64,000 nt of DNA. It comes from Rubrivivax sp. GTDB lineage: Bacteria; Pseudomonadota; Gammaproteobacteria; Burkholderiales; Burkholderiaceae_C. The notes beneath the pieces were generated by a model that did no database searches, was not told the origin of the DNA, and saw only the letters and a program-made list of their open reading frames with translations. Position numbers and translations under genes: made by a program. Positions 30,904-63,166 of the stretch are shown piece after piece. How positions within the stretch are numbered: the first letter of the stretch is position 1; every line of letters begins with the position of its first letter. The stretch spans positions 6,604-70,603 of the forward strand of contig JAEUPC010000061.1 of the NCBI GenBank assembly GCA_016789865.1. Reading direction: 5' to 3'.

Positions 30904-32127
30904 TCAGCGCCGGCCCTCGAACAACGAGCGCGCCACGATCTCCTTCATGATCTCGGTGGTGCCGCCGTAGATGCGCTGCACACGCGCATCGACCCAGGCG
31001 CGCGCGATCGGGTATTCGCGCATGTAGCCATAGCCGCCGAACAGTTGCAGGCAGCTGTCGAGCACCTGGAACTGCATCTCGGTGCACCAGTACTTGGCGA
31101 TCGACGCGGTGGCGGTGTCCAGCGTGCCGGCGAGGTGCCGGCGCAGGCACTCGTCGAGAAAGGCGCGCGCCACGCGCGTGTTGGCATGGGCCTCGACGAG
31201 GCGGTGGCGCACCGTCTGCTTGTCGGCCAGCGGCGCACCGAAGGCTTCGCGCTGCATCACCTGCTCGCGCGTCCACGCCACCGCGGCTTCCATCGCGCCC
31301 ACCGCGGTGATGGCCACCAGCAGCCGCTCCTGCGGCAGCTGGCTCATCATGCAGCCGAAGCCGCGGCCCGCCTCACCCAGCAGGTGGTCGCGCGGGATGC
31401 GCAGGTCGGTGAAGAAGAGTTCCGAGGTGTCTTGCGCGTGCATGCCGAGCTTGTCGAGCCGGCGCCCGCGGCTGAAGCCCGCCAGGTGCGTGGGGACCAG
31501 CAGCAAGCTCACGCCGTGCGCGCCACGCGCGGCGTCGGTCTTTGCCGCCAGCAGCAGCAGGTCGCACAGCTGGCCGTTGCTGATGAAGATTTTCTGGCCG
31601 TTGATGCGCCACACCGCCTGCGCGCCCTCGCCCTCGGGCTCGGCGCGCGTGCGCAGCGCCGCAAGGTCGCTGCCGGCGCCCGGCTCGGTCATGCCGATGG
31701 CGGCGATGCATTCGCCGCGGGCCATGCGCGGCAGCCACTGCTGCTTCTGCGCCTCGGTGCCGTAGTGCACGAGGTACGGCGCGACGATGTCCGAGTGCAG
31801 GTAGAACAGCGGCCCGGTGGCGCCGGCGCGCGCCATCTCCTCGGTGACGATGGCGGCGTAGCCGAAGTCGGCGCCGGCGCCGCCGCAGGCCTCGGGCACC
31901 GTCAGGCAAAGCAGGCCCAGTTCACCGGCACGCTGCCACAGCGCTCGCGGCACCTGGCCGTCGCGTTCCCACTGGGCGTGGTGCGGCGTGATCTCCTCGG
32001 CGATGAAGCGGCGCACGGTGGCGCGGAAGGCGGCGTGCTCCTCGGTGGCCAGCGGGGTCGTGGCGGGGTACAGGTCGTCGACGCCTCCGCCTCCGCCCCC
32101 ACCTCCGGTCGACGGCGCGGTGTTCAC
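30904..32127 (-). CDS. Acyl-CoA dehydrogenase (LCAD-like)
   Basis: MTEPGAGSDL, NGQKIFISNG, QLFGGYGYM, RIYGGTTEIMK; GTGA overlap. Confidence 0.93.
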   Translation of the reverse strand: MNTAPSTGGGGGGGGVDDLYPATTPLATEEHAAFRATVRRFIAEEITPHHAQWERDGQVPRALWQRAGELGLLCLTVPEACGGAGADFGYAAIVTEEMARAGATGPLFYLHSDIVAPYLVHYGTEAQKQQWLPRMARGECIAAIGMTEPGAGSDLAALRTRAEPEGEGAQAVWRINGQKIFISNGQLCDLLLLAAKTDAARGAHGVSLLLVPTHLAGFSRGRRLDKLGMHAQDTSELFFTDLRIPRDHLLGEAGRGFGCMMSQLPQERLLVAITAVGAMEAAVAWTREQVMQREAFGAPLADKQTVRHRLVEAHANTRVARAFLDECLRRHLAGTLDTATASIAKYWCTEMQFQVLDSCLQLFGGYGYMREYPIARAWVDARVQRIYGGTTEIMKEIVARSLFEGRR

Positions 32128-33989
32128 GCCGCCTGGCCCACGGGCGCCTGCGCCGCGCCCCCGCCGTACAGCGCCTCGATCGCCACGGCGTACTTCTCGG
32201 CAATGCTCCTGCGCTTGACCTTCATCGTCGCGGTGACCTCGCCGTCGTCGTGGTCGAGTTCCTTGGTCAGCAGGTGGAACCGGCGCACCTGCTGCACCTG
32301 CGGGAAGCGCGCGTTGACGCGGTCGACCTCGGCCTGCACGAGTTCGCGCACGCGCGGGTGCTCGGCGAGGCTGCGGAAATGCGTGTACGCGAGGCTGTGC
32401 TCCTCGGCCCACTTGCCCACGGTGTCGTAGTCGATCTGGATCAGCGCGGCGACGAACGGCCGGCGGTCGGCGACGACGATGGCTTCCTTGACGTAGGCGC
32501 TGAACTTCAGCGCGTTCTCGATTTCGCTGGGCGTGATGTTCTTGCCGCCGGCGGTGATCATGATGTCCTTCTTGCGGTCGACGATGCGGACCTCGTCGCC
32601 ATGCCGCGCGCTTTCTGGGCTCGCCACGCGTTCGGCCACGTCGCCGGTGTGCAAGTAGCCCTCGGCGTCGATGGCCTCGCGCGTGGCCGCTTCGTTGCGG
32701 TAGTAGCCCTTGAACACCGTCGGGCCGCGCACGAGCAACTCGCCGTCGTCGGCGATCTTCAGCTCGACACCCGGGATCGCGCTGCCCACCGTGCCGATGG
32801 GCGACGCGGCGCTGCGCTGCACGGTGGCGACGCCGGCGGTCTCGGTCATGCCGAAGCCCTCGCGGATGGGCACGCCCAGCGCGCGGAAAAAGCGCAGCAT
32901 GTCCGGTGCGATCGGCGCGGCGCCCGACAGCGCCATGCGGCAGCGGGTGAGGCCGATGAAGTTGGTGAGCGCGCGCAGCACGAGCCACCACCACAGCCCG
33001 TGCGTCAGGCGCTGCGCCAGCGTGCGGCGCTCGGGCGGCACGTCGGCAAACGGCAGCGTGGCGGCGAGCGCACGCTCGTAGAGCTTGCGGCGCAGGCCGC
33101 CCGCCTCGCGCACCTTGATCTCGATCGAGGCGTGCAGCTTCTCCCAGATGCGCGGCACGCCGAGGAACAGCGTGGGCGCGATCTCGCGCAAGTCGCCTTG
33201 CACCGTGCGCAGGCTTTCGGCGAAGTTCACCACCGCGCCCGAGCGCAGCGGCAGGTCCACGGTGTAGATCTGCTCGGCCACGTGACAAAGCGGCAGGTAC
33301 GACACGGTGCTGTCGGCGGGTGTGCAGCGGTAGATGGCGTCGGCGCCTCGGGCCATCGCGGCGACGTTGCCGTAGCTCAGCATCGCCGCCTTCGGGCGGC
33401 CGGTGGAGCCGCTGGTGAAGATCATCAGCGCGGTGTCGTCCATGCGCTGGCGTTCGAGGCGCTCGTCGACGATGCGCGGCTTCTCGTGCTCGAACGCCGC
33501 GCCGAGCGCGCTGACCTCCTCGAAGGTCATCAGGTCGGGCACTTCGTAGTGGCGCAGGCCGCGCGGGTCGATGACGACCAGGTGCTTCAGCAGCGGCAGC
33601 CGCTCGCGCACCTCCAGCACCTTGTCGAGCTGCTCCTGGTCTTCGCACACGACGACCACCGCGTCGGAGGCGTGCAGCAGGTACTCCACTTCGGGCGCCG
33701 GTGATGTGGGGTAGACGCCCACCGTCACCGCACCGACCAGCCCGCAGCCCAGCTGCGCGAACACCCACTCCTTGCGGTTCTCGCTGATCACCGCGCAGTG
33801 GCCGCCTTCGGGCAGGCCGAGCTTCACGAGGCCGAGGCCGAAGTGGCGCGCCGCCTGCTCGTACTGCGCCCAGGTCACCGGTTCCCAGATGCCGAAGTCC
33901 TTCTGCCGCAGCGCCACCGCTTCGGGCCGCACCTGTGCCCAGTGGCGCAGCTGCAGCGGCAGCGTGAGGGTGTCGATGGGGGAACTCAT
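32124..33989 (-). CDS. Long-chain acyl-CoA synthetase
   Basis: FTSGSTGRPK, EGFGMTE, TGD, DRKKDIMITAGGKNI. Confidence 0.93.
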   Translation of the reverse strand: MSSPIDTLTLPLQLRHWAQVRPEAVALRQKDFGIWEPVTWAQYEQAARHFGLGLVKLGLPEGGHCAVISENRKEWVFAQLGCGLVGAVTVGVYPTSPAPEVEYLLHASDAVVVVCEDQEQLDKVLEVRERLPLLKHLVVIDPRGLRHYEVPDLMTFEEVSALGAAFEHEKPRIVDERLERQRMDDTALMIFTSGSTGRPKAAMLSYGNVAAMARGADAIYRCTPADSTVSYLPLCHVAEQIYTVDLPLRSGAVVNFAESLRTVQGDLREIAPTLFLGVPRIWEKLHASIEIKVREAGGLRRKLYERALAATLPFADVPPERRTLAQRLTHGLWWWLVLRALTNFIGLTRCRMALSGAAPIAPDMLRFFRALGVPIREGFGMTETAGVATVQRSAASPIGTVGSAIPGVELKIADDGELLVRGPTVFKGYYRNEAATREAIDAEGYLHTGDVAERVASPESARHGDEVRIVDRKKDIMITAGGKNITPSEIENALKFSAYVKEAIVVADRRPFVAALIQIDYDTVGKWAEEHSLAYTHFRSLAEHPRVRELVQAEVDRVNARFPQVQQVRRFHLLTKELDHDDGEVTATMKVKRRSIAEKYAVAIEALYGGGAAQAPVGQAA

Positions 33990-34023
33990 GATTGCGGGGC
34001 AGTGTGCTGCCAGCCAAGCGAAC

Positions 34024-34098
34024 GCCGCGGAACCGGCTTTGCCGGGCCGCTGGCGTTGCCCCCTGGGGGGAGGCGGCCGAAGGCCGCTACGGGGGGGG
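34024..34098. repeat. REP-like palindromic element
   Basis: gccgcggaaccggctttgccgggccgctggc..ccccctggggg..gcggccgaaggccgc stems. Confidence 0.75.
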
Positions 34099-34911
34099 TC
34101 ATGACAACCAGCGCTTGCGGCGCTTGTAGTGCTTCACGTGGCGGAAGCTCGCCAGCTCCGCGCTGCCGTCGCCGTAGCCGAGATAGAAGCGCTGCACGTC
34201 GGGGTCGCGCACGAGCTTGTCGGTGGGGCCGTCGATAACGACCTTGCCGCTTTCCATGATGTAGCCGTACTGCGCGATCTCGAACGCGGCCATCGCGTTC
34301 TGCTCCACCAGCAGCATCGCCACGCCCTGCTCGCGGTTGATGCGGGCGATGATCTCGAAGATGCCCTGCACCACCAGCGGCGCCAGGCCCAGCGAGGGTT
34401 CGTCCAGCAGCATCAGCGCGGGCTTGCCGAGCAGCGCGCGGCCGATGGCCAGCATCTGCTGCTCGCCACCCGAGAGGTAGCCGGCGCGCTGCGCGCGGCG
34501 CTCGGCCAGGCGCGGAAAGTAGTCGTAGATGAGCGCGGTGTCGGCGGCTTTCGGTCCGCCGCGCCCTGTCAATGCATTGGACGCGGCGACGAGGTTCTCG
34601 TCGACGGTGAGGTCTTCGAACACGTGCCGCCCCTCGCGCACGTGGCCGATGCCGCGCCGCGCCAGCAGGTGCGGCGGCACGGCATCGATGCGCTCGCCCT
34701 GGAAGCGGATGGCGCCGCTCTTGATCTCACCCACCTCCAGCGGCAGCAGGCCCGAGATGGCCTTCAGCGTGGTCGTCTTGCCGGCGCCATTGCTGCCCAG
34801 GAGCGCCACGATCTGCCCGGCCGGCACCGCCAGCGACAGCCCGCGCAGCACCTGCACCGAGTGGCCGTAGACCACCTCGATGTTCTCGATGCCGAGCGCG
34901 GGCGGTGTCAT
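34099..34911 (-). CDS. LIV-type ABC ATP-binding protein (LivF-like)
   Basis: GSNGAGKTT, LSGGEQQMLAIGRAL, DEPSLGLAP. Confidence 0.92.
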   Translation of the reverse strand: MTPPALGIENIEVVYGHSVQVLRGLSLAVPAGQIVALLGSNGAGKTTTLKAISGLLPLEVGEIKSGAIRFQGERIDAVPPHLLARRGIGHVREGRHVFEDLTVDENLVAASNALTGRGGPKAADTALIYDYFPRLAERRAQRAGYLSGGEQQMLAIGRALLGKPALMLLDEPSLGLAPLVVQGIFEIIARINREQGVAMLLVEQNAMAAFEIAQYGYIMESGKVVIDGPTDKLVRDPDVQRFYLGYGDGSAELASFRHVKHYKRRKRWLS

Positions 34912-34971
34912 CAGCGTGCTCGTTCCCGGTGAAGCGCACGCGGGTGAGGTGCTTGACATGGCCAGGCGGCC

Positions 34972-35044
34972 GCCGGGGACGCGGCTTTGCCGGTGCGCTG
35001 GCAGCGCCATCTCGAGGGGGAGGCGGCCGCCAGGCCGCTTCGGG
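34972..35044. repeat. REP-like element, degenerate copy
   Basis: ggctttgccgg..gctggc..ggggaggcggccgccaggccgcttcggg, similar to the 34024 copy. Confidence 0.7.
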
Positions 35045-35053
35045 AGTGGGCCA

Positions 35054-36295
35054 TTACGCCGTCTTGATCCAGCCGCTGGCGGGCTGCAGCAGCTTCGACG
35101 TGGCGTCGTAGGTGTAGATGCGGCCGCTCGGAATCTGGTGGCCCTTGAGTGACACCAGCAACCCCGTCACGCCGCCGGTGTCCCAGTGGTCGATGCTTTC
35201 CAGCGCCGCCTTCATGTTCGCTCCGGTCAGCGGCTTGCCGGCCTTCAGCGTGCGTTCGATCACTTCGCTGAAGATCATGCCCACCAGCCAGCCGTGCGTG
35301 TAGAACAGCGGCACGTAGGGCATGTTCGGCCGCGCCTTGGCGGTGAACTCCTTGATCGCCTGCATCGTCGGCGCGCCCTCGGTGTCGTAGCTGTAGCGGT
35401 AGGGCATCACGCCCATCCAGCCCTGGCCGGCGGCGCCCATCGCGTCGACGGTGGTCTTGTCCATGCTCCAGATCGTGCCCATCGGCACCGTGCTCATGCC
35501 GGCCTCGCGCATCTGCTTGATGAACTCGGGGATCGGTGCCAGCACATAACCGTGGAAGATCACGTAGTCCGGCTTGGCGCGGCGCAGCTTGGCCACCTCG
35601 CTGCTCACGTCCACCGCGCCCGGCTTGGTGACGATCTCCTGCACGATCGGGATCTGCAGCGCCTGCGCCTTGGCCTTGATGCCGGGGATGGGGTCGCGGC
35701 CGAACTCGGTGTCGCTGTACACGATGGCGACCGCGGGCTTGCTGGCGCCGCGCGAGGTGCGGTTGATGTACTCGAGCAGGATCTCGCCCATCGCCGTGTA
35801 GGTGGGCCCGGCCATGAAGTAGTAGGGCGCGTTCTTCGGGTCGGCGAGGTCGGAGCTGAAGCTCGGGCTCGAGGTGAGCGTGGTGCCGAGTTGGCTGACT
35901 TCGGCCGCGGCGGCCTTGGCCCAGGCCGTGCTGTCGCCGTAGAACACCGGCGGCTTGTGCGCGCCCATCAGCTTCTTGAAGACGGCCATCGCCTGGTCCA
36001 TCTTGTAGCCACTGTCTTCGCCGATGTAGCGCAGCGTGCGGCCGGCGACGCCCCTCCTGGTTTCGTTGCGCCACTGGCAGTAGTCGCCCAGGCCCTGGTG
36101 CAAGCCCACGCCGGCGAACGCGAACACGCCGGTGATCGGCGGTGCGGCGGCGACGACGATCTCGCCGCTCTGGGCGATGGCCGCGCCCAGCGGCAGCGAA
36201 GACAGCGCGGCGGCGCCGGCCGCGCCGAGGCCGGCACCGACGATGCGGCGGCGAACAGGGTCGCGCAGCGGGTTGCTCAGGTCATCGTGGCTCAT
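35054..36295 (-). CDS. LIV-type ABC substrate-binding protein with Tat signal
   Basis: VRRRIVGAG signal; EDSGYK, DTEFGRDP; AAGGAG RBS. Confidence 0.9.
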   Translation of the reverse strand: MSHDDLSNPLRDPVRRRIVGAGLGAAGAAALSSLPLGAAIAQSGEIVVAAAPPITGVFAFAGVGLHQGLGDYCQWRNETRRGVAGRTLRYIGEDSGYKMDQAMAVFKKLMGAHKPPVFYGDSTAWAKAAAAEVSQLGTTLTSSPSFSSDLADPKNAPYYFMAGPTYTAMGEILLEYINRTSRGASKPAVAIVYSDTEFGRDPIPGIKAKAQALQIPIVQEIVTKPGAVDVSSEVAKLRRAKPDYVIFHGYVLAPIPEFIKQMREAGMSTVPMGTIWSMDKTTVDAMGAAGQGWMGVMPYRYSYDTEGAPTMQAIKEFTAKARPNMPYVPLFYTHGWLVGMIFSEVIERTLKAGKPLTGANMKAALESIDHWDTGGVTGLLVSLKGHQIPSGRIYTYDATSKLLQPASGWIKTA

Positions 36296-36324
36296 CGTCA
36301 GCTCCTTGCGTTGGACGGGAAGGG

Positions 36325-37365
36325 TCAGGCCCGGAAGGGCCACAGGTGGAAGCTCCTGCGCACGCGCCGCCAGATTTCCAGCAGGCCGTGCGGCTCGAAG
36401 ACGAGAAAGCCCATGATCAGGAGGCCGAACACCACCTGCTGCGCGGGGCTGAGCACCTCGGTGGCGCGCGGCGCCCATTGCGAGATGGTGGCCACGCCGC
36501 CGCGCAGCAGCTCGGGCATCAGCGTCATGAACACCGCGCCGAAGATCGTGCCCAGCATGCTGCCCAGACCGCCGACGATGATCGCGGCGAGGTAGAAGAT
36601 GGAAAGCTGCAGCGTGAAGTACTCGGGCGTCATCGCGCGGTAGAAGTAGCCCAGCAGCGCGCCGGCCACGCCGGCGTAGAACGAGCCGATCGCGAACGCG
36701 GCGAGTTTGTAGCGCAGCAGGTCGATGCCCAGCACCTCGGCCGAGATGTCCTTGTCGCGGATGGCGATGAAGGCGCGCCCGACGCGCGTGCGGAAGAGGT
36801 TGCGCCCGCCGATGAGCAGCGCCGCGGCCACCGGCACGATGAGGAAGTACATGCGCGCGTCGTTCTTCAGCTCGAAGCCGAAGACGCTGGCATTGGGCAC
36901 GTTGACTCCGCGCACGCCGCCGGTGACGCTTTCCCACTCGCGGAACACGTAGACCAGCAGGAACTGCGTGGCCAGCGTCGCCACCGCGAGGTACAGGCCC
37001 TTGATGCGCAGGCTGGGCAGCCCGACCACGAGGCCCAGCGCCGCGGCCATCAAGCCCGCCGCCGGCAACGTGACGAAGAACGGCATGCCCTGCCTGGCCA
37101 GCCACGCCGCGGTGTAGCAGCCCACGCCCATGAACGCCGCGTGGCCCAGCGAGATGAGCCCGGTGTAGCCGGTCATGATGTTCAGCCCCGCCGCGGCGAT
37201 GCAGTGGATGCCGACGATGCACGCCAGGCTGACCAGGTAGCCGTTGGCGGTGAACGGAAACACCAGCAGCGCGACCACCAGCCCGACGAGCCACGTCTGC
37301 TGCACGCGCGTGGGCCAGATCGCCTCGTCGTGCGCGTAGCTCTCGCGGTAGTCGCCGATGCGCAT
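36325..37365 (-). CDS. LIV-type ABC permease (LivM-like)
   Basis: GYTGLISLGHAAF, LRIKGLYLAVATL, IIVGGLGS. Confidence 0.92.
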   Translation of the reverse strand: MRIGDYRESYAHDEAIWPTRVQQTWLVGLVVALLVFPFTANGYLVSLACIVGIHCIAAAGLNIMTGYTGLISLGHAAFMGVGCYTAAWLARQGMPFFVTLPAAGLMAAALGLVVGLPSLRIKGLYLAVATLATQFLLVYVFREWESVTGGVRGVNVPNASVFGFELKNDARMYFLIVPVAAALLIGGRNLFRTRVGRAFIAIRDKDISAEVLGIDLLRYKLAAFAIGSFYAGVAGALLGYFYRAMTPEYFTLQLSIFYLAAIIVGGLGSMLGTIFGAVFMTLMPELLRGGVATISQWAPRATEVLSPAQQVVFGLLIMGFLVFEPHGLLEIWRRVRRSFHLWPFRA

Positions 37366-37394
37366 GTGTCGGTGTTCCTGCTTCGGGCCGGTGC

Positions 37395-38291
37395 TCAGAG
37401 CCGCTCGATCTGCCGCGTGCCGAACAGGCCGTAGGGCCGGATCAGCAGGATCACGAGCACGGTGGCGTAGGGCACGATGTCGCGCACCTTGCCGCCCAGG
37501 TACGCGGCGGTGAGGCTTTCGAGCAGCCCGACGATGAGCCCGGCGACGATGGCGCCGGCGATGCTGTCGAGCCCGCCGAGGATGATGACCGCCAGCACCC
37601 CGAGCGCCGCGCTGCCCAGCGCCGGCGACAGGCTCGTCATCGATGCCACCACGATGCCGGCCATGGCGCCGACGACGCCGGCGAACATCCAGGTCAGCGC
37701 CTGCGTGCGCCGCACGTCGATGCCCATCACGTAGGCGGTAATGGGGTCGCTGGCCGCGGCGCGCATGGCGATGCCGGTGCGCGAGTAGCGGAAGTACAGC
37801 GTGAAGGCGGTGATGACCGCGGCCGCGAGCACGAAGCTCCACACCACCTGCCCGGGAATGAGGATGTCGCCGGGCGTGAACGGCTTGCGCGGCAGCACCT
37901 GCGGCATCTCGAGGTTCTGACCGCCCCACGTGCCTTCGACCAGGCCATGCAGCGCGCTGGCCAGGCCGATGGTGGCCATCAGCACCGAGATCACCGGCTG
38001 GCCCGAAAGCGGCCTGAGCAGCGTGCGTTCGATCAACGCCGCCACCGCGGCCACGGCCGCCAGCGTGAGCGCCAGCGCCACGCCCATCGGCAGCTTCCAC
38101 ATCACGTCGGCGGTGTAGAAGAAGTAGGCGCCCAGCATCATGAACTCGCCCATCGCGAAGTTGATGACGCCCGTGCCCTTGTAGATAAGCACGAAGCCCA
38201 GCGCGATGAGCGCCAGCAGCCCGCCCGAGAGCAGGCCGATGGCCGAGTATTCGGCCAGCGCGACCCAGTCGAAGCCGGCGGCGCTGTTCAT
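37395..38291 (-). CDS. LIV-type ABC permease (LivH-like)
   Basis: ALGFVLIYKGTGVINFAMGE, ILGGLDS, LIRPYGLFG. Confidence 0.92.
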   Translation of the reverse strand: MNSAAGFDWVALAEYSAIGLLSGGLLALIALGFVLIYKGTGVINFAMGEFMMLGAYFFYTADVMWKLPMGVALALTLAAVAAVAALIERTLLRPLSGQPVISVLMATIGLASALHGLVEGTWGGQNLEMPQVLPRKPFTPGDILIPGQVVWSFVLAAAVITAFTLYFRYSRTGIAMRAAASDPITAYVMGIDVRRTQALTWMFAGVVGAMAGIVVASMTSLSPALGSAALGVLAVIILGGLDSIAGAIVAGLIVGLLESLTAAYLGGKVRDIVPYATVLVILLIRPYGLFGTRQIERL

Positions 38292-39103
38292 GCTTGCGCC
38301 ACCTGCCGCGCCGCGGCCTGCTCGCCGAGGTAGGCGCGCACGACCTCGGGGTTGTGCCGCACGTCGGCCGGCGTGCCCTCGCCGATGACTTCGCCGAAGT
38401 TGAGCACCACCACGTGGTTGGCGATGTCCATCACCAGGCCCATGTCGTGCTCGATCAGCAGCACCGTGATGCCGCGCTCCTCCTGGATGTCGAGGATGAA
38501 ACGCGCCATGTCCTCGGTTTCTTCGCGGTTCATGCCGGCCACGGGCTCGTCGAGCATCAGCACCTTGGGCCGCATGGCCAGCGCGCGCGCGAGCTCGACG
38601 CGCTTTTGCAGCCCGTAGGGCAGCGCCGCCACCGGCTGGTGGCGCACATGGTCGATCTCGAGGAAGTCGACCACCTCGCGCTCGATCTCGCGGCGCAGCG
38701 CCATCTCTTCGCGCTGCGCGGGGCCGAGGTACCACCAGGCCGTCAGCGGGTTGGCGGCCAGGCGGCTGTGGCCGCCGAGCTTGATGTTGTCCAGCACGCT
38801 CATGCCGCGAAACAGCGCCACGTTCTGGAACGTGCGCGCCAGGCCCATCGCCGCGCGGCGGGCCGGGCCGATGCGCGTGATGTCGCGCCCCTCGAAGACG
38901 ATGCGCCCCTGCTGCGGGCGGTAGAAGCCCGAGACGGTGTTGAACAGGCTCGTCTTGCCCGCGCCATTGGGGCCGATGATCGCGGTGATCTCGCCCGCGC
39001 GCGCACAAAGAGACACGCCGGCCAGCGCCTTGATGCCGCCGAAGCCGAGGTGCACGCCGTCGGCCTGCAGCAGCGGCGCGGAGGAGGTCGGCGATGCGGT
39101 CAT
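38288..39103 (-). CDS. LIV-type ABC ATP-binding protein (LivG-like)
   Basis: GPNGAGKT, RTFQN, LPYGLQKRVELARAL, IEHDMGLV. Confidence 0.92.
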   Translation of the reverse strand: MTASPTSSAPLLQADGVHLGFGGIKALAGVSLCARAGEITAIIGPNGAGKTSLFNTVSGFYRPQQGRIVFEGRDITRIGPARRAAMGLARTFQNVALFRGMSVLDNIKLGGHSRLAANPLTAWWYLGPAQREEMALRREIEREVVDFLEIDHVRHQPVAALPYGLQKRVELARALAMRPKVLMLDEPVAGMNREETEDMARFILDIQEERGITVLLIEHDMGLVMDIANHVVVLNFGEVIGEGTPADVRHNPEVVRAYLGEQAAARQVAQA

Positions 39104-39247
39104 CGGGGCTCGGCGGGTCGGGGCAGCCGACGAAAGAGCAGCCGGCGGTGCAAGTGCTGCGGGCATTGTTCGGAGGGTGCCGTGCGCCGGCCATCATCGT
39201 TAGCCCTAGCGGCGCCTGCCGGGTGCTGGCGTCGACGCCGGGCGCAC

Positions 39248-39302
39248 GCCGCGAGCCTGCCACGAGCCCGCCACGAGCCTGCCACTGGCCCGTCACGAGC
39301 CC
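39248..39302. repeat. 11-bp tandem repeat (GCCACGAGCCY x5)
   Basis: gccgcgagcct-gccacgagccc-gccacgagcct-gccactggccc-gtcacgagccc. Confidence 0.8.
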
Positions 39303-39340
39303 GCCGCGCGTTGCCCTCGGGCGCGAGCCTCATCGTGCCT

Positions 39341-52752: not shown

Positions 52753-52897
52753 CGGTGGTGGCGGGTCGACGGTGGGATGGATGCGCGTGGACAGCGTGTG
52801 AGCGGCTTGACGCGCAGTCTACGGTCCGCCCCGCCGCGGCGCGGTGGCCGCGGCCGCCCACGACGCCGGCATCACGGCATCACGTCATCGCGGCACA

Positions 52898-52936
52898 TGA
52901 CGCGTGACGCGTCACGCGTCACGCGTCACGCGATCA
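52898..52936. repeat. Perfect 24-bp palindrome built from 7-bp tandem repeats
   Basis: tgacgcgtgacgcgtcacgcgtca (52898-52921) followed by more cgcgtca units. Confidence 0.85.
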
Positions 52937-56348: not shown

Positions 56349-56463
56349 CAGTGGCTCGCGCAGGGGCCGCCTGCCCGCGCTTCGCGCGGCATGCGGGTTG
56401 GCTGCGCCGCAGCGGCCCCGTGACCGCTGTCTCCCCGATTCGCAGCGAGGATCTCGCGAAGGC

Positions 56464-57303
56464 TCACGGCGCCGCGCCCTCCGGCGCGGGCGGACCTTCA
56501 GGCACCCAACTTGCCTTGCGCTTGTGGAGGAATGCCATCGTGCCTTCCACGCCCTCGGGCCCGAGCACGGCGTTCGAGAACATCTGCGCCGCCTCGGGCA
56601 CCAGCGCCGCCGGCGCCGTGAAGCGCGCCTTGGCCAGCAACGCCTTGGTGGCCGCCAGTGCGCCTGGCGCGCAGGCGAGGACCTGCGTCACGATGCGGCC
56701 CAGCGCCCAGTCGAGCGCTTCGGCGTCGTGTACTTCGTGCACGAGGCGCAGCCGCAGCGCCTCTTGCGACTCGACCTTCGCGCCGGTGACGGCCAGGCGC
56801 TTGGTCTCGGCGTAGCCGATGCGTTCGACGAGAAACGGCCCCACCTGCGCCGGCAGCAGGCCGAGGCCCGTCTCGGGCAGGCGGAACACCACGCTGTCGT
56901 CGGCAATGCAGATGTCGCTCACGCAGGCCAGGCCGAAGCCGCCGCCCATCACCGTGCCCTGCAGCATGGTGATGATCGCCAGGCCGGTGTTCGCGTAGGC
57001 CACGCACAGTTCGCCGAAGGTGGCGTTGGTCGTGGCGAGCGCGGCAGGGTCTTCGGCCAGGCGGCCCCGCGCCGCGGCCATGTCCTTGATGTCGCCGCCG
57101 GCGCAGAAGTGGCCACCGGCGCCGCGCAGAACCAGCACCCGGGTGTGCCCGTCCATCTCGGCCTGCGCCAGCACGGCGCGCAGCTCGCGCACCATCTGCA
57201 GCGACATGGCATTGCGCACGTCGAGCCGGTTGAGCGTGACGTGCAGCACCGGGCCGTCGCGCTTCAGCGCGAGGGTCTTGAAGTCGGCCAGCTCGACGCT
57301 CAT
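56464..57303 (-). CDS. atuE: Isohexenylglutaconyl-CoA hydratase-like crotonase
   Basis: FCAGGDIKDM, GGGFGLACVSD, LPETGLGLLPAQ. Confidence 0.75.
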   Translation of the reverse strand: MSVELADFKTLALKRDGPVLHVTLNRLDVRNAMSLQMVRELRAVLAQAEMDGHTRVLVLRGAGGHFCAGGDIKDMAAARGRLAEDPAALATTNATFGELCVAYANTGLAIITMLQGTVMGGGFGLACVSDICIADDSVVFRLPETGLGLLPAQVGPFLVERIGYAETKRLAVTGAKVESQEALRLRLVHEVHDAEALDWALGRIVTQVLACAPGALAATKALLAKARFTAPAALVPEAAQMFSNAVLGPEGVEGTMAFLHKRKASWVPEGPPAPEGAAP

Positions 57304-57310
57304 CGCGGCC

Positions 57311-58468
57311 TCAATGTGCACCCTTGGGCAGCGTGCCCTCGAGCTTGCAGATGATGCCGAGCATCACCTCGTCGGCGCCGCCGCCGATGGAGGTGAGGCG
57401 GCCGTCGCGATAGGCCTGCGACAGCGGGTTGTCGGCGGTGAAGCCCATGCCGCCCCAGTATTGCAGGCAGCTGTCGGCCACCTCGCGCCCCAGGCGCCCG
57501 GCCTTGAGCTTGGCCATGCTGGCGAGCTTGGTCACGTCCTTGCCGCTGACGTACAGCTCGACCGCGCGGTAGGTCAGCGCGCGCAGCGCTTCCAGTTCCG
57601 TGCGCAGCTCGGCCAGGCGGAAGTGCACCACCTGGTTGTCGAGGATGCTCTTGCCGAAGGCCTTGCGCTGGCGCGTGTAGTCGACGGTCAAATCGATCAG
57701 CCGGTCCATCGCCTTCAGCCCCGCGGCGGCGCCCCACAGGCGCTCTTCCTGGAACTGCAGCATCTGGAACGCGAAGCCCATGCCTTCCTGGCCGATGAGG
57801 TTGCGGCGTGGCACGCGCACGTTGTCGAAGAAAAGCTGCGCGGTGTCTGAACTGTGCATGCCGATCTTGTGGATCTTCTGCCTGGTGATGCCGCGGCTGT
57901 CCATCGGCACGACGATCAGGCTCTTGTTCTTGTGCGGCGAGCCGCCTTCGCTGGTGTTGGCGAGCAGGCAGCACCAGTCGGCTTTCAGGCCGTTGGTGAT
58001 CCACATCTTGGTGCCGTTGATGACGTAGTCACCGCCGTCGTGCCTGGCGGTGGTCTTGACGGCGGCCACGTCGCTGCCGCCGCCGGGCTCGCTTACGCCC
58101 AGGCAGGCCACGTAGTCGCCGGCGATGGTGGGCACGAGGTATTCCTTGCGCAGCTCGTCGCTGCCGAAGCGGGCCAGCGCCGGGGTGGCCATGTCGGTCT
58201 GCACGCCGATGGCCATCGGGATGCCGCCGCATGCGCACACGCCCAGCGCTTCGGCCATTACCAGGCTGTAGGAGAAGTCCAGGCCCTGGCCGCCGAATTC
58301 CTCGGGGTACTTCAGGCCCAGGAGCCCGAGGTTGCCGAGCTTCTTGAAGACCTCGTGGCTCGGGAACTGCTCAGCCTTCTCCCATTCGGGCACGAAGGGG
58401 TTGATTTCCTTCTGCACGAACTTGATCACCGTGTCTTCGATCTGGCGGTGTTCGGGAGTGAACTTCAT
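57311..58468 (-). CDS. atuD: Citronellyl-CoA dehydrogenase-like acyl-CoA dehydrogenase
   Basis: GVQTDMATPAL, GVSEPGGGSDVA, QFQEERL, SIGGGADEVML. Confidence 0.85.
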   Translation of the reverse strand: MKFTPEHRQIEDTVIKFVQKEINPFVPEWEKAEQFPSHEVFKKLGNLGLLGLKYPEEFGGQGLDFSYSLVMAEALGVCACGGIPMAIGVQTDMATPALARFGSDELRKEYLVPTIAGDYVACLGVSEPGGGSDVAAVKTTARHDGGDYVINGTKMWITNGLKADWCCLLANTSEGGSPHKNKSLIVVPMDSRGITRQKIHKIGMHSSDTAQLFFDNVRVPRRNLIGQEGMGFAFQMLQFQEERLWGAAAGLKAMDRLIDLTVDYTRQRKAFGKSILDNQVVHFRLAELRTELEALRALTYRAVELYVSGKDVTKLASMAKLKAGRLGREVADSCLQYWGGMGFTADNPLSQAYRDGRLTSIGGGADEVMLGIICKLEGTLPKGAH

Positions 58469-58513
58469 GAGGGTGTCTCCGGAAGGAATCAGCACAGGCA
58501 AGCCGCGGCGCGC

Positions 58514-60124
58514 TCAGAGCCGCGCGATGCCGAAAGTGTTGGGTCGCAGCGTGCGCGCGGCGGCCTCGGCGGCGATGGTGAGGCACAGGCCGAGGATGCG
58601 CCGCGTGTCGCGCGGGTCGATGATGCCGTCGTCCCACAGGCGCGCGGTGCCGAACAGCGCCGCGCTCTCGGCGTCGAGCCGACGGCGCAGCGCGTCGCTC
58701 ATCGCGGCCAGCGCTTCGTCGTTGGGCTGCTGGCCCATCTTGGCCAGCTTGTTGCGGTTGACGATGTCCATCACCTTGGCGGCCTGCGCGCCGCCCATCA
58801 CGGCCGTACGCGCCGAAGGCCACGCAAAGATGAAGCGCGGGTCGAAGCCGCGGCCGCACATGCCGTAGTTGCCGGCGCCGAAGCTGCCGCCGAGCACGAT
58901 GGTGAACTTCGGTACGCGCGCGTTGGCCACCGCCTGGATCATCTTGCTGCCGTGCTTGATGGCGCCGGCGTGTTCGGCGGCGCGGCCCACCATGTAGCCG
59001 GTGGTGTTCTGCAGGAAGACGAGCGGCGTGCCGCTTTGATCGCAGAGTTGAATGAACTGACCGGCCTTGGTGCTGCCGCTGGGCTGGATGGGCCCGTTGT
59101 TGCCGATGAGGCCGACCGCGTGGCCGTGGATGCGCGCGTGGCCACAGATGGTGTCGGTGGCGTAGGCGGCCTTGAATTCGAGGAAGTCGCTGGCGTCGGA
59201 GAGGCGCGCGATGACCTCGCGCACGTCGTAGGGTTCGCGGTCGTCGGCGGGCACGATGCCCATCAGCTCTTCGGCGGCGTACAGCGGCTCGGGCGCCGCG
59301 GGCCGCGCCGCCACGGTGTCCCACGGCAGCTTGTCGATCAGTTCGCGCGCGACGGCAATCGCATGCGCGTCGTTTTCGGTGAGGTACTCGCCCAGGCCCG
59401 TGATCGACGCGTGGGTTTCGGCGCCGCCGAGTTCCTCTTCGCTGGCGTCTTCGCCGATCGCGGCTTTCACCAGCGGCGGGCCGGCCAGGTAGATGCTGCT
59501 GCGGTTCTTCACCAGCACCACGTAGTCGGAGAGGCCCGGCAGGTAGGCGCCACCCGCAGTGGAGGCGCCGTGCACCACGGCGACTTGCGGAATGCCCGCG
59601 GCCGACAGGCGCGCCTGGTTGGCGAAGGTGCGCCCGCCGTCGACGAAGATCTCGGCCTGGTACATCAGGTTGGCGCCGCCGGACTCGACGAGCGCCACCA
59701 GCGGCAGCTTGTTCTCGCGCGCCAGTTCCTGCGCACGCAGCGCCTTTCTCAAGCCCATCGGCGCCACGGTGCCGCCCTTGATGCCGCTGTCGCTGGCCGA
59801 GACGAGCACGCGTTTGCCCGCCACCACGCCGATGCCGACGATGCTGCCGCCGCCCATCACGCTCTTCTTGCCGTCGTCGTCGTGCATGTTGAGGCCGGCG
59901 AGCGTGCTCAGTTCGAGGAACTCGCTGCCGCGGTCGACGAGGCGTGCCACCCGTTCGCGCGGCAGCAACTGGCCGCGCTCCTCGAACCGCTTGCGCTTGC
60001 TGTCGCTTTCGGCCACCACCAGAGCTTCGAGCCGGCGCACCTCGGCCAGCCGCTCGTGCATGCGCGCGGCGTTGGCCTGGAAGGCTGCCGAGGCCGGGTT
60101 CAGCGAAGAAGCGATCCGGGGCAT
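58514..60124 (-). CDS. atuC: Geranyl-CoA carboxylase-like carboxyltransferase subunit
   Basis: VESGGANL, TAGGAYLPGLSD, SFGAGNYGMCGR. Confidence 0.82.
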   Translation of the reverse strand: MPRIASSLNPASAAFQANAARMHERLAEVRRLEALVVAESDSKRKRFEERGQLLPRERVARLVDRGSEFLELSTLAGLNMHDDDGKKSVMGGGSIVGIGVVAGKRVLVSASDSGIKGGTVAPMGLRKALRAQELARENKLPLVALVESGGANLMYQAEIFVDGGRTFANQARLSAAGIPQVAVVHGASTAGGAYLPGLSDYVVLVKNRSSIYLAGPPLVKAAIGEDASEEELGGAETHASITGLGEYLTENDAHAIAVARELIDKLPWDTVAARPAAPEPLYAAEELMGIVPADDREPYDVREVIARLSDASDFLEFKAAYATDTICGHARIHGHAVGLIGNNGPIQPSGSTKAGQFIQLCDQSGTPLVFLQNTTGYMVGRAAEHAGAIKHGSKMIQAVANARVPKFTIVLGGSFGAGNYGMCGRGFDPRFIFAWPSARTAVMGGAQAAKVMDIVNRNKLAKMGQQPNDEALAAMSDALRRRLDAESAALFGTARLWDDGIIDPRDTRRILGLCLTIAAEAAARTLRPNTFGIARL

Positions 60125-60149
60125 GCGCAAGCAGGCGATGGTAGGCGGG

Positions 60150-61052
60150 TCACTTGAACGCCTCGGGCGTGACGGCGCGGTGGAAGCCTTCGTAGGGCCG
60201 CTGGTTCCTGGCCTCCTGCAGCGGGAACACCGCGTGGCCGAGCGAGGCGCCGCCGTCGATCTGCACGGTGACGCCGGTGACGAACGAAGCGGCCGGCGAC
60301 AGCAGGAAGACGATGACGGCGCTGATCTCGGCTTCCAGCGCCACGCGCTTCATCGGTACCGCGTTCTTCAGCTTCTTGATCATCGGCTGCATCGCCGGGC
60401 CGTAGGTGTCCATGCCGCTGCTGGCCACCCAGCCCGGCGCCACGGCGTTCACACGGACGCCGGCATGTGCCCACTCGAAGGCCGCGGTCATGGTCAGGTT
60501 GCTCATGCCCGCGCGCGCCGCGCCGCTGTGCGCCATGCCCGGCATGCCGTTGCGGAAGTCGGCCGTCATGTTGACGATGGCACCGCCGTGCTGCTCCATG
60601 CACTGGTTGTAGAGCTCGCGCATCATGAGGAAGCCGCCGGTGAGGTTGTTGGCCACCACCGCGTCGAACCCCTTCTTGCCGATGGCCATCAGTGGCGAAG
60701 GGAACTGGCCACCGGCGTTGTTCACCAGGCCGGCGACCGGGCCATACTGCGCGACCACCTGCTTGACTGCGCCCTGGACCATGGCTTCGTCACGGATGTC
60801 GAAGGCGATGACGTGGCAGCGGCCGCCGTCTTCGACGATCTCGGCACGCACGCGCTCGAGCTTGTCGAGCTTGCGGCCGCTGATGATGACCGTGGCGCCG
60901 AGCGAGGCCAGTTCGTGCGCCACGCAGCGGCCGATGCCGCTGCCACCACCGGTGACCCAGACGCGCTGGCCGGCGAACAGCCCGGGGTGGAATGCGCTGC
61001 GGTAGCCGGCGGCGGGGGTGCCCGGGTCGGGCGTGGGCGTGGGAGCGTCCAT
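60150..61052 (-). CDS. atuB: SDR oxidoreductase, AtuB-like
   Basis: TGGGSGIGRC, NNAGGQF, HSGAARAGM. Confidence 0.8.
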   Translation of the reverse strand: MDAPTPTPDPGTPAAGYRSAFHPGLFAGQRVWVTGGGSGIGRCVAHELASLGATVIISGRKLDKLERVRAEIVEDGGRCHVIAFDIRDEAMVQGAVKQVVAQYGPVAGLVNNAGGQFPSPLMAIGKKGFDAVVANNLTGGFLMMRELYNQCMEQHGGAIVNMTADFRNGMPGMAHSGAARAGMSNLTMTAAFEWAHAGVRVNAVAPGWVASSGMDTYGPAMQPMIKKLKNAVPMKRVALEAEISAVIVFLLSPAASFVTGVTVQIDGGASLGHAVFPLQEARNQRPYEGFHRAVTPEAFK

Positions 61053-61074
61053 CGAATCCGATTGGACCCGCAGG

Positions 61075-61088
61075 TGACGTTAACGTCA
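61075..61088. promoter_or_regulatory. LiuR-type MerR operator
   Basis: Perfect palindrome TGACGTTAACGTCA between the divergent operons. Confidence 0.8.
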
Positions 61089-61193
61089 ACTGCGTGACAT
61101 CTAGGGGATTGCGATGAGCGCCGCGGCATGGGCTGGCGCTACGATGGCTGCCAGCCAAGAGGCGGCCTGGGCCGCGACGGAGTTCCTCATTCC

Positions 61194-61490
61194 ATGGACA
61201 TGCAAGCCATCACCGAGCAGCTGCGCGCCAAGGTCGGCGCAGGCAGCGGCCTGAACGCCACGCTGAAGTTCGACTGCGGCGCCGACGGCGTCGTCGTCAT
61301 CGACGGCAAGAGCGTGCCGAACACGGTGGACAACACCGACCGCGAGACCGACTGCACCGTGAGCATCACCCACGAGAACCTGGTGGCGCTGATGACCGGA
61401 GAGCTGGAGCCGGCCACCGGCTTCATGATGGGCAAGTTCAAGGTCACAGGCGACATGAGCGTGGCGCTGAAGCTGCAGCGCGTGGTCTGA
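61194..61490 (+). CDS. SCP2 sterol/lipid carrier domain protein
   Basis: DCTVSI..GELEPATGFMMGKFKVTGDMSVALKL. Confidence 0.9.
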   Translation: MDMQAITEQLRAKVGAGSGLNATLKFDCGADGVVVIDGKSVPNTVDNTDRETDCTVSITHENLVALMTGELEPATGFMMGKFKVTGDMSVALKLQRVV

Positions 61491-61505: not shown

Positions 61506-62012
61506 ATGCTGCAACGGGCCGCCAGGCGGGCAGAACGCACCGGCCGTTCCGCGCGAGTGGCGGCCCTCACCGCCGCCGGCGCGGCGCCGCCGGTGTCGGC
61601 GCGTGACGTGGTGGCCTCGCACCGCGATGACGGCACCGGCGAACTGTTCGGCATCACCGAACTGTGCCGCGACTTCGGCATCACGCTGCGCACCATCCGC
61701 TTCTATGAAGACAAGGGGCTTCTCGCGCCGCGCCGCGTGAACGGCACCCGCGTCTACACGCGGCGCGACCGCGCTCGGCTGGCGCTCATCCTGCGCAGCA
61801 AGGCCATCGGCGCGAGCCTGGCCGACATCAAGCAGTACCTCGACCTGTACGGCGCGCACGGCGAAGGCCGCGTGCAGCAGCTGAAGTGGGTGCTGGGCAA
61901 GACCGATGCCGCGATCGACGAGCTGGAACAGCGCCGCGCCCACATCGACGCGACGCTGGCCGAGCTGCGCGTGATCAACAGCGAGGTGCGCAAGCATCTG
62001 GAGGGTCGATGA
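61506..62012 (+). CDS. MerR-family regulator (LiuR-like)
   Basis: ITELCRDFGITLRTIRFYEDKGLLAPRR..RDRARL. Confidence 0.9.
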   Translation: MLQRAARRAERTGRSARVAALTAAGAAPPVSARDVVASHRDDGTGELFGITELCRDFGITLRTIRFYEDKGLLAPRRVNGTRVYTRRDRARLALILRSKAIGASLADIKQYLDLYGAHGEGRVQQLKWVLGKTDAAIDELEQRRAHIDATLAELRVINSEVRKHLEGR

Positions 62013-63166
62013 GCCTGCCCCTGTTCCCCTCGGCGTGGATGACCGAGGAGCACCGCATGCTCCAGGATGCGGCCGCCCGCTACATCGCCGAGAAGTGGGT
62101 GCCGCGTGCCGCGGAGTTCCGCCAGCTCGGCCTGATGCCGCCGACCGTGTGGCGCGAAGCGGCAGCCAACGGGCTGCTCTGCGCCTCGACGCCGGAGGAG
62201 TACGGCGGCGCCGGCGGCGACTTCGGCCACGAAGCGGTCATCCTGCTGGAGCAGGCCCGGGCCAACATGAGCGGCTGGGGCGGCGGGCTGCACTCGGCGA
62301 TCGTCGCGCCCTACATCCTGCACCACGGCACCGAGGAGCAGAAGCGCCGCTGGCTGCCGAAGATGTGCACGGCCGAATTCATCACCGCCATCGCGATGAC
62401 CGAGCCGGGCACCGGCAGCGACCTGCAAGGCGTGCGCACCACGGCGCGCCGCGACGGTGACCACTACGTCATCAACGGCGCCAAGACCTTCATCACCAAC
62501 GGACAGAACGCCAACCTGGTGGCAGTGGTGTGCCGCACAGGCGACGTGGGCGCCGGCGCCAAGGGCATGTCGCTGCTGTTCGTCGAGACCGGGCACGCGC
62601 CGGGCTTTCGCCGTGGCCGCCATCTCGACAAGGTCGGCATGAAGGCGCAGGACACGAGCGAACTCTTCTTCGACGACGTGCGCGTGCCGGCCGAGAACCT
62701 GCTGGGCATGAAGGAAGGCCAAGGCTTCTTCCAGCTGATGCAGGAACTGCCGCAAGAGCGCCTCATCATCGCGGTGAGCGGCGTGGGCGCGATGGAGCGG
62801 GCACTGGAGGAAACGCTGGCCTACGCCAAGGAACGAAAGGCCTTCGGCAAGACGGTGTGGGACTTCCAGAACACCCGCTTCAAGCTCGCCGAGGTGCAGG
62901 CCACGGTGCTGGCCACGCGCGCCTATGTCGACGCGTGCATGGTGGCGCACCTGAAGGGTGAGCTGGACGCCGCACGCGCCGCGCTGGCCAAGGCCTGGGT
63001 GAGCGAGCAGCAGTGCAAGGTCATGGATGAGTGCCTGCAGCTCTTCGGCGGCTACGGCTACATGATGGAGTACCCCATCGCCGAGCTGTATGTGGACGCG
63101 CGCGTGCAGCGCATCTACGGCGGCACGAACGAGATCATGAAGGAGCTGGCGTCGCGCTTCATGTGA
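62009..63166 (+). CDS. Acyl-CoA dehydrogenase (LCAD-like)
   Basis: AMTEPGTGSDLQ, QDTSELFF, RIYGGTNEIMKE. Confidence 0.93.
   Translation: MSLPLFPSAWMTEEHRMLQDAAARYIAEKWVPRAAEFRQLGLMPPTVWREAAANGLLCASTPEEYGGAGGDFGHEAVILLEQARANMSGWGGGLHSAIVAPYILHHGTEEQKRRWLPKMCTAEFITAIAMTEPGTGSDLQGVRTTARRDGDHYVINGAKTFITNGQNANLVAVVCRTGDVGAGAKGMSLLFVETGHAPGFRRGRHLDKVGMKAQDTSELFFDDVRVPAENLLGMKEGQGFFQLMQELPQERLIIAVSGVGAMERALEETLAYAKERKAFGKTVWDFQNTRFKLAEVQATVLATRAYVDACMVAHLKGELDAARAALAKAWVSEQQCKVMDECLQLFGGYGYMMEYPIAELYVDARVQRIYGGTNEIMKELASRFM

Follow-up and report, generated by a model that had tools for sequence, protein, structure and literature searches.

How might a bacterium dispose of the branched acyl-CoA that results once a quaternary carbon has been moved out of the way of beta-oxidation? 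Quaternary carbons block beta-oxidation and hence neo-acids, pivalate esters and tert-butyl compounds persist; to our knowledge, a B12-dependent mutase is the only biochemically defined bypass of this block at the acyl-CoA level. For pivalate, the accepted logic is that pivalyl-CoA is converted to isovaleryl-CoA, which then follows the leucine route through methylcrotonyl-CoA carboxylase (MCC). The stretch of DNA analysed here, a window of 64,000 nucleotides from a Rubrivivax-like member of the Burkholderiales, holds an operon for a mutase of the pivalyl-CoA mutase (PCM) family and, on the same strand, a carboxylase operon that resembles the atu cluster of Pseudomonas aeruginosa, and an earlier note on this DNA had suggested that the two form one pathway for branched acids. 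We lean slightly towards the view that the PCM operon as a feeder and the Atu-type operon as a trunk act in series, as one route for quaternary-carbon acids. The searchable literature yielded neither a paper on gene clusters for PCM or on the pathways of pivalate, nor a description of a PCM operon directly attached to a carboxylase operon of the non-MCC, wide-pocket kind that includes a beta-keto acid cleavage enzyme (BKACE); the earlier note's remark that no such coupling had been described is nevertheless too strong, as the passage from PCM into a leucine-type route is already accepted for pivalate.

The host is a Rubrivivax-like metagenome-assembled genome (MAG) of 4.59 Mb that is 77% complete, and its nearest relatives are Rubrivivax-like Sphaerotilaceae MAGs. 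Since the G+C content of the window is approximately 72%, genes were delimited by third-position GC bias, and they were confirmed with Pfam and NCBIfam.

The mutase and its operon

The large subunit of the mutase (566 residues; 40603-42303, minus strand; Pfam MM_CoA_mutase, 550 bits) is 66% identical to Xaut_5043 of Xanthobacter autotrophicus over 95% of the protein (tblastn against plasmids), and the next families reach at most about 40% identity. The B12-binding small subunit (42367-42807, minus strand; Pfam B12-binding, 86.5 bits; TIGR00640 above cut-off) is 73% identical to Xaut_5044. Xaut_5043/5044 is reportedly the native PCM on which Kitanishi, Cracan and Banerjee worked in 2015. Among solved structures 2-hydroxyisobutyryl-CoA mutase (HCM) is closest (357 bits), followed by MCM (approximately 319 bits) and IcmF (155 bits). 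Leu93 (within RQL) and Asn210 (within VANH) of the window mutase sit at the positions of MCM Tyr89 and MCM Arg207, and both residues are invariant among 82 aligned family members, Xaut_5043 included, from which we infer that the Leu/Asn pair defines PCM. A homologue with 80% identity carries the JGI name pivalyl-CoA mutase large subunit. On these sequence grounds, and with a syntenic operon in Xanthobacter, the window mutase is assigned to the PCM (pivalyl-CoA/isovaleryl-CoA mutase) family, in agreement with the earlier note, which had read it as a Leu/Asn mutase that turns 2,2-dimethyl into 3-methyl acyl-CoAs. The HCM of Aquincola tertiaricarbonis (4r3u) is alike in having a Rubrivivax-related host and, likewise a B12 mutase, resolves tertiary or quaternary carbons when xenobiotics are broken down, but it has Ile/Gln at the Leu93/Asn210 positions and TDFD in place of LIPCN, and its identity to the window mutase is far below that of Xaut_5043. 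Two further acyl-CoA mutases were seen in the host genome, one MCM-like (36% identical; 708-residue frame) and one an IcmF-like fused enzyme (1155-residue frame); the coordinates G000:C182:6465-8042 and G000:C9:6323-7852 cover both.

The mutase operon occupies the minus strand from 30904 to 43409 and reads, in transcription order, TetR, B12 subunit, mutase, MeaB::thioesterase, LIV importer, ligase and acyl-CoA dehydrogenase (ACAD), with 4-bp overlaps at several gene junctions. The first gene encodes a TetR regulator (42804-43409; Pfam TetR_N and TetR_C_24), which was found in 69 of 81 PCM loci; these comprise the window and the best 80 of 393 loci carrying a related mutase, and their neighbour content was typed by tblastn and by clustering of open reading frames (ORFs). 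Downstream of the mutase lies a fusion of the G-protein chaperone MeaB with a PaaI/PaaD-type hotdog thioesterase (39341-40606; TIGR00750 above cut-off), in which Pfam MeaB (278 bits) covers residues 41-283 and Pfam 4HBT (59.5 bits) residues 330-403. This fusion is the rule in the mutase family, being present in 70 of the 81 loci (for example in L099, 16646-18093). The five genes of a LIV-type ATP-binding cassette (ABC) importer (34099-39166; Pfam ABC_tran, Peripla_BP_6, two BPD_transp_2 and BCA_ABC_TP_C) follow, namely livG (38288-39166), livH (37395-38291), livM (36325-37365), the binding protein (35054-36343) and livF (34099-35010), all on the minus strand; such an importer set adjoins PCM in 12-14 of the 81 loci and also in Xanthobacter and Diaphorobacter. 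The AMP-forming acyl-CoA synthetase (621 residues; 32124-33989, minus strand; Pfam AMP-binding, 249 bits) is FadD11-like, scoring 399 bits against the NCBIfam FadD11 model, which is below its cut-off, and is 33% identical to Xaut_5039 of the Xanthobacter PCM operon. The operon ends with ACAD1 (30904-32127, minus strand; three ACAD Pfam domains), which resembles long-chain acyl-CoA dehydrogenase (LCAD) and not isovaleryl-CoA dehydrogenase (IVD): its best match in the PDB is human LCAD with 415 bits, against 215-242 bits for the IVDs, and its orthologues (65-91% identity) adjoin PCM in other loci. Divergent from TetR, a thiolase gene (43748-44953, plus strand; Pfam Thiolase_N and Thiolase_C) is probably part of the TetR regulon; a TetR-divergent thiolase also occurs in L021, L022, L024 and Sphingobium, and L048 and L051 have thiolase matches too.

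Much of this operon is shared with plasmid pXAUT01 of X. autotrophicus Py2 (Xaut_5045-5034), where TetR (Xaut_5045), the B12 subunit (5044), the Leu/Asn mutase (5043), MeaB (5042) and a PaaD-type thioesterase (5041) precede ligases and LIV-type ABC genes in a syntenic order. The MeaB part is 64% and TetR 47% identical between the two. Unlike Xanthobacter, where MeaB and the thioesterase are separate neighbours (Xaut_5042 and Xaut_5041), the window has the two fused, an LCAD-like ACAD at the end of the operon and a divergent thiolase; the PCM operon of Xanthobacter also has no carboxylase operon nearby, in contrast to that of the window. The MeaB of Sphingobium is approximately 325 residues long and has no annotated thioesterase gene alongside.

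The Atu-type operon

The second operon lies on the minus strand from 52934 to 61052 and reads, in transcription order, short-chain dehydrogenase/reductase (SDR), carboxyltransferase (CT), ACAD, hydratase, biotin carboxylase/biotin carboxyl carrier protein (BC/BCCP), BKACE and 4HBT, that is, atuB-C-D-E-F-BKACE-thioesterase. From the end of the thiolase gene at 44953 to the thioesterase at 52934 there are 7,981 bp, and the distance from the mutase gene is 10.6 kb; the earlier note had placed an operon of this composition and order about 8 kb past the mutase locus, which these figures bear out.

The gene at the AtuC position encodes a CT beta subunit of 536 residues (58514-60124, minus strand) that scores 720 bits against the beta subunit of the geranyl-CoA carboxylase (GCC) of P. 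aeruginosa (5ikl_B), compared with 530 bits against MCC beta (3u9r_B). In GCC, Gly162 replaces Phe191 of MCC, and MCC has a three-residue insert immediately before this Phe (Jurado et al. 2015, PMC4673880). The window CT reads IFVDGGRTFANQA, with Gly163 at the position of GCC Gly162 and without the Phe of MCC, and its stretch IFVDGGRTF aligns with IFVEGARGF of 5ikl_B. It also lacks the insert (HMMER leaves a three-residue query gap against PDREHFGRIFF of MCC), whereas MCC paralogues of relatives show the insert-containing FPDREHFGRIFYNQA. An extended N-terminal helix, a property of GCC and MCC beta and not of the propionyl-CoA carboxylase (PCC) beta subunit, is present, the alignment with 5ikl_B running from query residue 4 and chain residue 1. 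Homologues of the window CT carry the JGI name geranyl-CoA carboxylase beta subunit. The AtuF-like alpha subunit (54411-56348, minus strand) combines biotin carboxylase and BCCP (Pfam Biotin_carb_N, CPSase_L_D2, Biotin_carb_C and Biotin_lipoyl), and the hydratase (56464-57321, minus strand) is placed by its structure matches with AtuE, with 240 bits to the isohexenylglutaconyl-CoA hydratase AtuE of P. aeruginosa (4zu2) and 258 bits to 4k3w, other crotonases scoring approximately 105 bits. Scores and signature residues thus assign the window carboxylase to the GCC/Atu type, as the earlier note had proposed, and the GCC-like CT and the AtuE-like hydratase matches make the operon Atu-type as far as the C, E and F genes and the gene order are concerned. 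GCC is only very weakly active on 3-methylcrotonyl-CoA, for which its Km is very high, and its larger pocket can also hold this substrate (Jurado et al. 2015, PMC4673880).

The ACAD at the AtuD position (57311-58501, minus strand; ACAD Pfam domains) has PDB matches that are graded evenly from 263 bits for the best to 213 bits for IVD, and so falls into no solved class; the SDR at the AtuB position (60150-61052, minus strand; Pfam adh_short and adh_short_C2) is the first gene and a 4HBT hotdog thioesterase (52934-53425, minus strand; Pfam 4HBT) the last. Homologues of the latter, with 50-90% identity, close the carboxylase operon or an SDR-ACAD operon beside PCM in 13 related loci. The BKACE (DUF849; 53422-54414, minus strand) belongs to an uncharacterised subfamily; it matches Pfam PF05853 with 269 bits in two stretches (cut-off 24.8), met no equivalog cut-off of NCBIfam and has Kce (2y7d, 112 bits) as its best PDB match. 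Its orthologues in relatives have 290-314 residues against 330 in the window, and metagenome contigs from three runs omit 89 bases at 53767-53857 and have 14 different letters there, which agrees with a lineage-specific in-frame insertion inside the window BKACE.

Divergently, on the plus strand, lie genes for SCP2 (61194-61490), a LiuR-like regulator of the MerR family (61593-62012), ACAD3 (62009-63166) and an aldehyde dehydrogenase (ALDH; 63293-64000; Pfam Aldedh) that is truncated by the end of the window; Pfam matches thereby confirm the divergent set named in the earlier note. ACAD3 is LCAD-like, with 378 bits to human LCAD; the IVDs score 215-246 bits against ACAD1 and ACAD3, and none of the three ACADs of the window is IVD-like. 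The ALDH is full-length (452-474 residues) in L126-L129, and in relatives the divergent operon extends through ALDH to a thiolase and a FadB-like enzyme.

Compared with atuRABCDEFGH of P. aeruginosa, the window shares the order atuB-C-D-E-F, the GCC-type CT and the AtuE-type hydratase, but lacks atuA, atuG, atuH and a TetR-type AtuR, the regulator being a LiuR-like MerR; it also differs in that the operon ends with BKACE and a hotdog thioesterase and is flanked by the divergent SCP2, ACAD and ALDH genes (with thiolase and FadB-like genes in relatives). No match to AtuA, a second SDR or a ligase was found among the genes from 52.9 to 64 kb, and the sole AtuA-family pair of the host genome is on another contig (G000:C42:5679-7417; L135), far from any carboxylase. 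This split pair, AtuA and a ferredoxin-like partner, adjoins a TctC receptor, an alkyl sulfatase and a 951-residue FAD-binding/AMP-binding fusion. With the Liu system (liuRABCDE) the window has in common a LiuR-type MerR and the sequence of 3-methylacyl-CoA dehydrogenation, methyl carboxylation, hydration and cleavage; unlike Liu and MCC, it has Gly at the equivalent of Phe191, no insert, no IVD-like ACAD and no 3-hydroxy-3-methylglutaryl-CoA (HMG-CoA) lyase in the cluster.

Linkage of the two operons in relatives

The four-gene PCM core TetR-mutS-mutL-MeaB::4HBT is present in approximately 70 of the 81 loci, and every other neighbour in at most 18. L023 has the two units contiguous on one strand, as atuB-C-D-E-F-BKACE-4HBT-TetR-mutS-mutL-MeaB4HBT (reported as twelve genes in all), with 122 bp between 4HBT and TetR. 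The arrangement in L019 is the same except that a gene for GGT alone parts the units, and L026 and L034 have atuC-D-F-4HBT, a single DUF349 gene and then the TetR-mut operon. Genome G406 holds an atuC orthologue (93% identical) 24 kb upstream on the same contig; G407 and G409 have the orthologue on a different short contig, and G408 has no orthologue of the window atuC. The units are therefore contiguous or linked in all six Rubrivivax-clade genomes whose contiguity permits the test, and this linkage was kept even though the DNA between the units turned over heavily.

A carboxylase also adjoins PCM in Ramlibacter, where the PCM operon of L027, L036 and L044 converges on TetR2-SDR-CT-ACAD-BC-ACAD-4HBT. 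The CT concerned is 53% identical to the window CT, 62% to a third type of CT and 44% to MCC; like the window CT, it carries the selectivity Gly and lacks the MCC insert. We read this association as a second, independent event, since the gene family is different and the orientation is another. The third type of methylcrotonyl/geranyl-CoA carboxylase beta subunit, identified here, is marked by the motif ESAGANL...FV[HR]GG..FRNLA, by Gly at the GCC selectivity position and by the lack of the MCC insert, and is 53-56% identical to the GCC type and 43-46% to MCC; it occurs in L107, L108 and L116 (genomes G403, G404 and G408), in L027 (17666-19327) and in L044 (8791-10362). G403 and G404 each hold paralogues of all three kinds, GCC-type, third-type and MCC. 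The cultured Ramlibacter lithotrophicus RBP-1 has PCM with LIV, ligase, ACAD and SDR-ACAD-4HBT genes, but of these carboxylases it possesses MCC alone.

In a tree of the mutases, every carboxylase-linked locus falls inside one well-supported clade of 23 rows. When the tally is restricted to loci with at least 8 kb of flank on both sides, a carboxylase is present in four of seven loci of this clade and in none of 23 outside it, where the neighbours of PCM include EamA, phasin, Lon and an indolepyruvate-oxidoreductase-like gene. The synteny that the earlier note had wished to see checked is thus seen in all testable Rubrivivax-clade genomes and, with another carboxylase, in Ramlibacter, but most PCM units and most close orthologues of the Atu-type unit are unpaired. 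G403 has a canonical locus for MCC beta, MCC alpha and HMG-CoA lyase, separate from PCM; because relatives keep canonical MCC and HMG-CoA lyase elsewhere, the PCM-linked carboxylase is an extra, dedicated system. An order-wide tally of co-occurrence used a CT threshold of 1e-175, which failed to split the GCC type from the MCC type and just missed the Ramlibacter type; it was therefore given limited use only, and a lower threshold was applied to selected genomes afterwards.

Candidate operators

Each unit has its own palindrome. The region between the divergent TetR and thiolase genes contains CAAACAACCGTTTGTT (43628-43643), which is likely to be a TetR operator; there is one copy in the window against 0.05 expected by chance, and the element CAAACnnnnGTTTG stands at the same place 5' of TetR in loci of Rubrivivax, Ramlibacter, other Burkholderiales and Diaphorobacter. 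Between atuB and SCP2 lies the perfect palindrome TGACGTTAACGTCA (61075-61088), likewise a likely operator, in this case of the LiuR-like MerR; it too has one copy in the window and is kept in the atuB/SCP2 gap of ten loci (those named being L023, L034 and L126-L132). Both motifs are conserved and could be used for biosensor or regulon studies.

Proposed route and rival explanations

We propose that the feeder unit, under the control of TetR through its putative operator at 43628-43643, would take in a branched acid with the LIV-type importer and convert it into the CoA ester with the 621-residue ligase. The PCM-family mutase, kept loaded by the MeaB::thioesterase chaperone, would then shift the thioester carbon from the quaternary C2 to a methyl group, so that a 2,2-dimethylacyl-CoA becomes a 3-methylacyl-CoA, and the LCAD-like ACAD1 would yield the 3-methyl-2-enoyl-CoA. 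The biochemical match is strong: products of this class are precisely those needed by an ACAD, a gamma-carboxylase and a hydratase. We infer that metabolites flow from here into the trunk unit, under the LiuR-like MerR and its putative operator at 61075-61088, where the GCC-type biotin carboxylase (AtuC/AtuF-like) would carboxylate the 3-methyl group and the AtuE-type hydratase would then add water. An enzyme of the HMG-CoA lyase type, encoded elsewhere, would cleave the hydrated product and, if it works as HMG-CoA lyase does, release acetyl-CoA and a free beta-keto acid. From this acid and acetyl-CoA, BKACE could form acetoacetate together with a shortened acyl-CoA, and beta-oxidation would be completed by the divergent operon (ACAD and ALDH, with thiolase and the FadB-like enzyme in relatives). 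A lyase acting in trans is plausible by analogy, because G403 has a canonical MCC/HMG-CoA lyase locus. LiuE of Pseudomonas is such a lyase acting in trans. The window has no HMGL-like gene, and in the host genome long HMGL-like ORFs are limited to two, with 573 and 588 residues. BKACE itself was considered as a substitute for the lyase and rejected, as it needs a beta-keto acid and the product of the hydratase is a tertiary alcohol.

Quaternary-carbon lipids and terpenoids, which the earlier note proposed as substrates, are conjectural candidates. Since GCC is poor on 3-methylcrotonyl-CoA, a GCC-type partner would be sensible only if the mutase products were larger than isovaleryl-CoA, and the wide-pocket carboxylase, the LCAD-like ACAD1 and ACAD3 and the long ligase together hint at acids larger than pivalate (more than C5). 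That the PCM of this clade acts on 2,2-dimethyl acids longer than pivalate, with the GCC-type carboxylase, the AtuE-type hydratase and BKACE handling the products, is put forward only tentatively, as a possibility that we consider rather unlikely in this full form. No residue was found to be fixed differently in the mutases of the carboxylase-linked clade at the thresholds used, and therefore nothing in the mutase points to an altered substrate.

Several further observations weigh against the two units acting in series, and they are best considered together with the possibility that there is no metabolic link at all: a mobile four-gene PCM cassette could have landed once, in an ancestor of Rubrivivax, beside an independent Atu-type operon for isoprenoids or branched lipids, with pivalate-derived isovaleryl-CoA entering the canonical Liu/MCC pathway elsewhere. 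The PCM core has a patchy distribution, occurring in 12 of 400 genomes sampled across the order, is plasmid-borne with insertion sequence (IS) elements in other taxa and stands solitary among unrelated genes in most loci, and there is no carboxylase within 20 kb of PCM on the plasmids of Diaphorobacter and Sphingobium. Five near-complete PCM-positive genomes have one unlinked CT each, at 48-50% identity, that is, at MCC level. Seven near AtuC orthologues (85-93%) on long contigs keep SCP2-MerR-ACAD-(ALDH)-thiolase-FadB together with atuB-C-D-E-F-BKACE-4HBT, but PCM lies downstream in none of the six evaluable loci, which carry a DegP-like protease, an Ig-repeat protein, a PIN toxin-antitoxin pair or a PAS kinase instead, the downstream content differing each time; and six of nine evaluable Ramlibacter-clade loci have SDR-ACAD-4HBT only, without carboxylase genes. 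The coupling is thus not general, most PCM modules standing alone and most close Atu-type orthologues being without PCM. Within the window the units are parted by unrelated genes that take up 9.3 kb and lie on both strands, and as a DegP-like gene lies past the PCM module in L019, L023, L026 and L034, the module occupies a variable spot, so that the Rubrivivax linkage may represent one insertion that was then inherited. The units share no cis element, neither palindrome occurring in the promoter of the other unit in the window or in relatives, and L023 keeps the TetR operator CAAACnnnnGTTTG between 4HBT and TetR despite contiguity; separate regulators are, for their part, what sequential induction of a feeder and a trunk would lead one to expect. 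Relatives possess a canonical MCC locus with lyase into which isovaleryl-CoA could pass, and the poor activity of GCC-type enzymes on 3-methylcrotonyl-CoA also favours an absence of any link. Against it stand the second association in Ramlibacter, where the carboxylase operon is non-orthologous and differently oriented, the six Rubrivivax-clade genomes that stay linked in spite of the turnover between the units, the fact that the neighbouring enzymes are exactly those that the PCM product needs, and the LCAD-like rather than IVD-like ACAD1 within the PCM operon itself. We regard an accidental neighbourhood as doubtful.

That no HMG-CoA lyase and no MCC were found in the host genome is a further point against units in series. 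Another explanation is that the Atu-like operon is the host's own leucine/isovalerate (Liu) pathway under LiuR and makes up, with PCM, a plain pivalate route without larger substrates. The regulator is indeed a LiuR-like MerR, and its likely palindromic operator is conserved; neither a second MCC/GCC-type CT or alpha subunit nor an HMG-CoA lyase was found in this 77% complete genome, and the GCC pocket can accept 3-methylcrotonyl-CoA too (Jurado et al. 2015, PMC4673880). IVD was likewise not found in the host genome; because of the 77% completeness, these absences of lyase, MCC and IVD are no evidence of absence, and the missing MCC is a weak argument for a plain Liu pathway. The selectivity Gly, the lack of the MCC insert and the 720 against 530 bits of the CT, the AtuE-type hydratase, the lack of an IVD-like enzyme among the three ACADs and the very high Km of GCC for 3-methylcrotonyl-CoA all argue against it, as does the canonical MCC with lyase that close relatives hold in addition, and we consider a plain Liu role improbable.

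A PCM feeder and an Atu-type trunk in series thus remains the reading towards which we incline. The repeated position of PCM beside non-MCC, wide-pocket carboxylase operons provides a concrete gene set for the downstream route, and hints that PCMs may act beyond pivalate. If the reading with longer acids were true, the two operons would amount to a full bacterial route, not described so far, by which neo-acids of medium chain length and other compounds whose alpha-carbon is quaternary are mineralised. DNA matching the window was detected in bioreactor, activated-sludge and biofilm metagenomes (four runs, shares 0.22-0.51), habitats in which such xenobiotics occur. The contigs from these four runs (42300-61100) were short, with short-sided joints, and none spanned both units or gave another arrangement.

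Surrounding genes and other observations

The DNA between the units (45090-52752) holds, by Pfam, a gene for GGT on the plus strand and, on the minus strand, an 81-residue ORF, an RCC1-repeat protein, an unknown protein of 305 residues and a BTAD/AAA/TPR regulator, none of which is related to the pathway. The genes for the RCC1, 305-residue and BTAD proteins occur in none of the 80 related loci, and GGT is retained in L019 only. The DNA 3' of the 4HBT gene (45090-52934 in the window; from approximately 17100 in L126-L132) differs in nearly every relative, its content being variously a DegP-like protease, an Ig-repeat protein, a PIN toxin-antitoxin pair with a beta-lactamase, a PAS kinase, DUF349, GGT, the BTAD module or PCM, and looks like an insertion hotspot.

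Two plasmids outside the clade carry PCM in other settings. The plasmid of Sphingobium sp. YC-XJ3 (L125) has thiolase, TetR, mutS, mutL, MeaB and ligase duplicated approximately 10 kb apart (17417-22621 and 26104-32959), with IS6100 and ISSp1 transposases between the copies, an arrangement that shows the PCM module to be mobile. On the plasmid of Diaphorobacter sp. HDW4B (L124), a second B12 mutase cluster (31874-36747) lies approximately 10 kb downstream of the PCM operon and comprises genes for an enoyl-CoA hydratase, a mutase, a B12 subunit, a CoA transferase and a GTP-binding protein.

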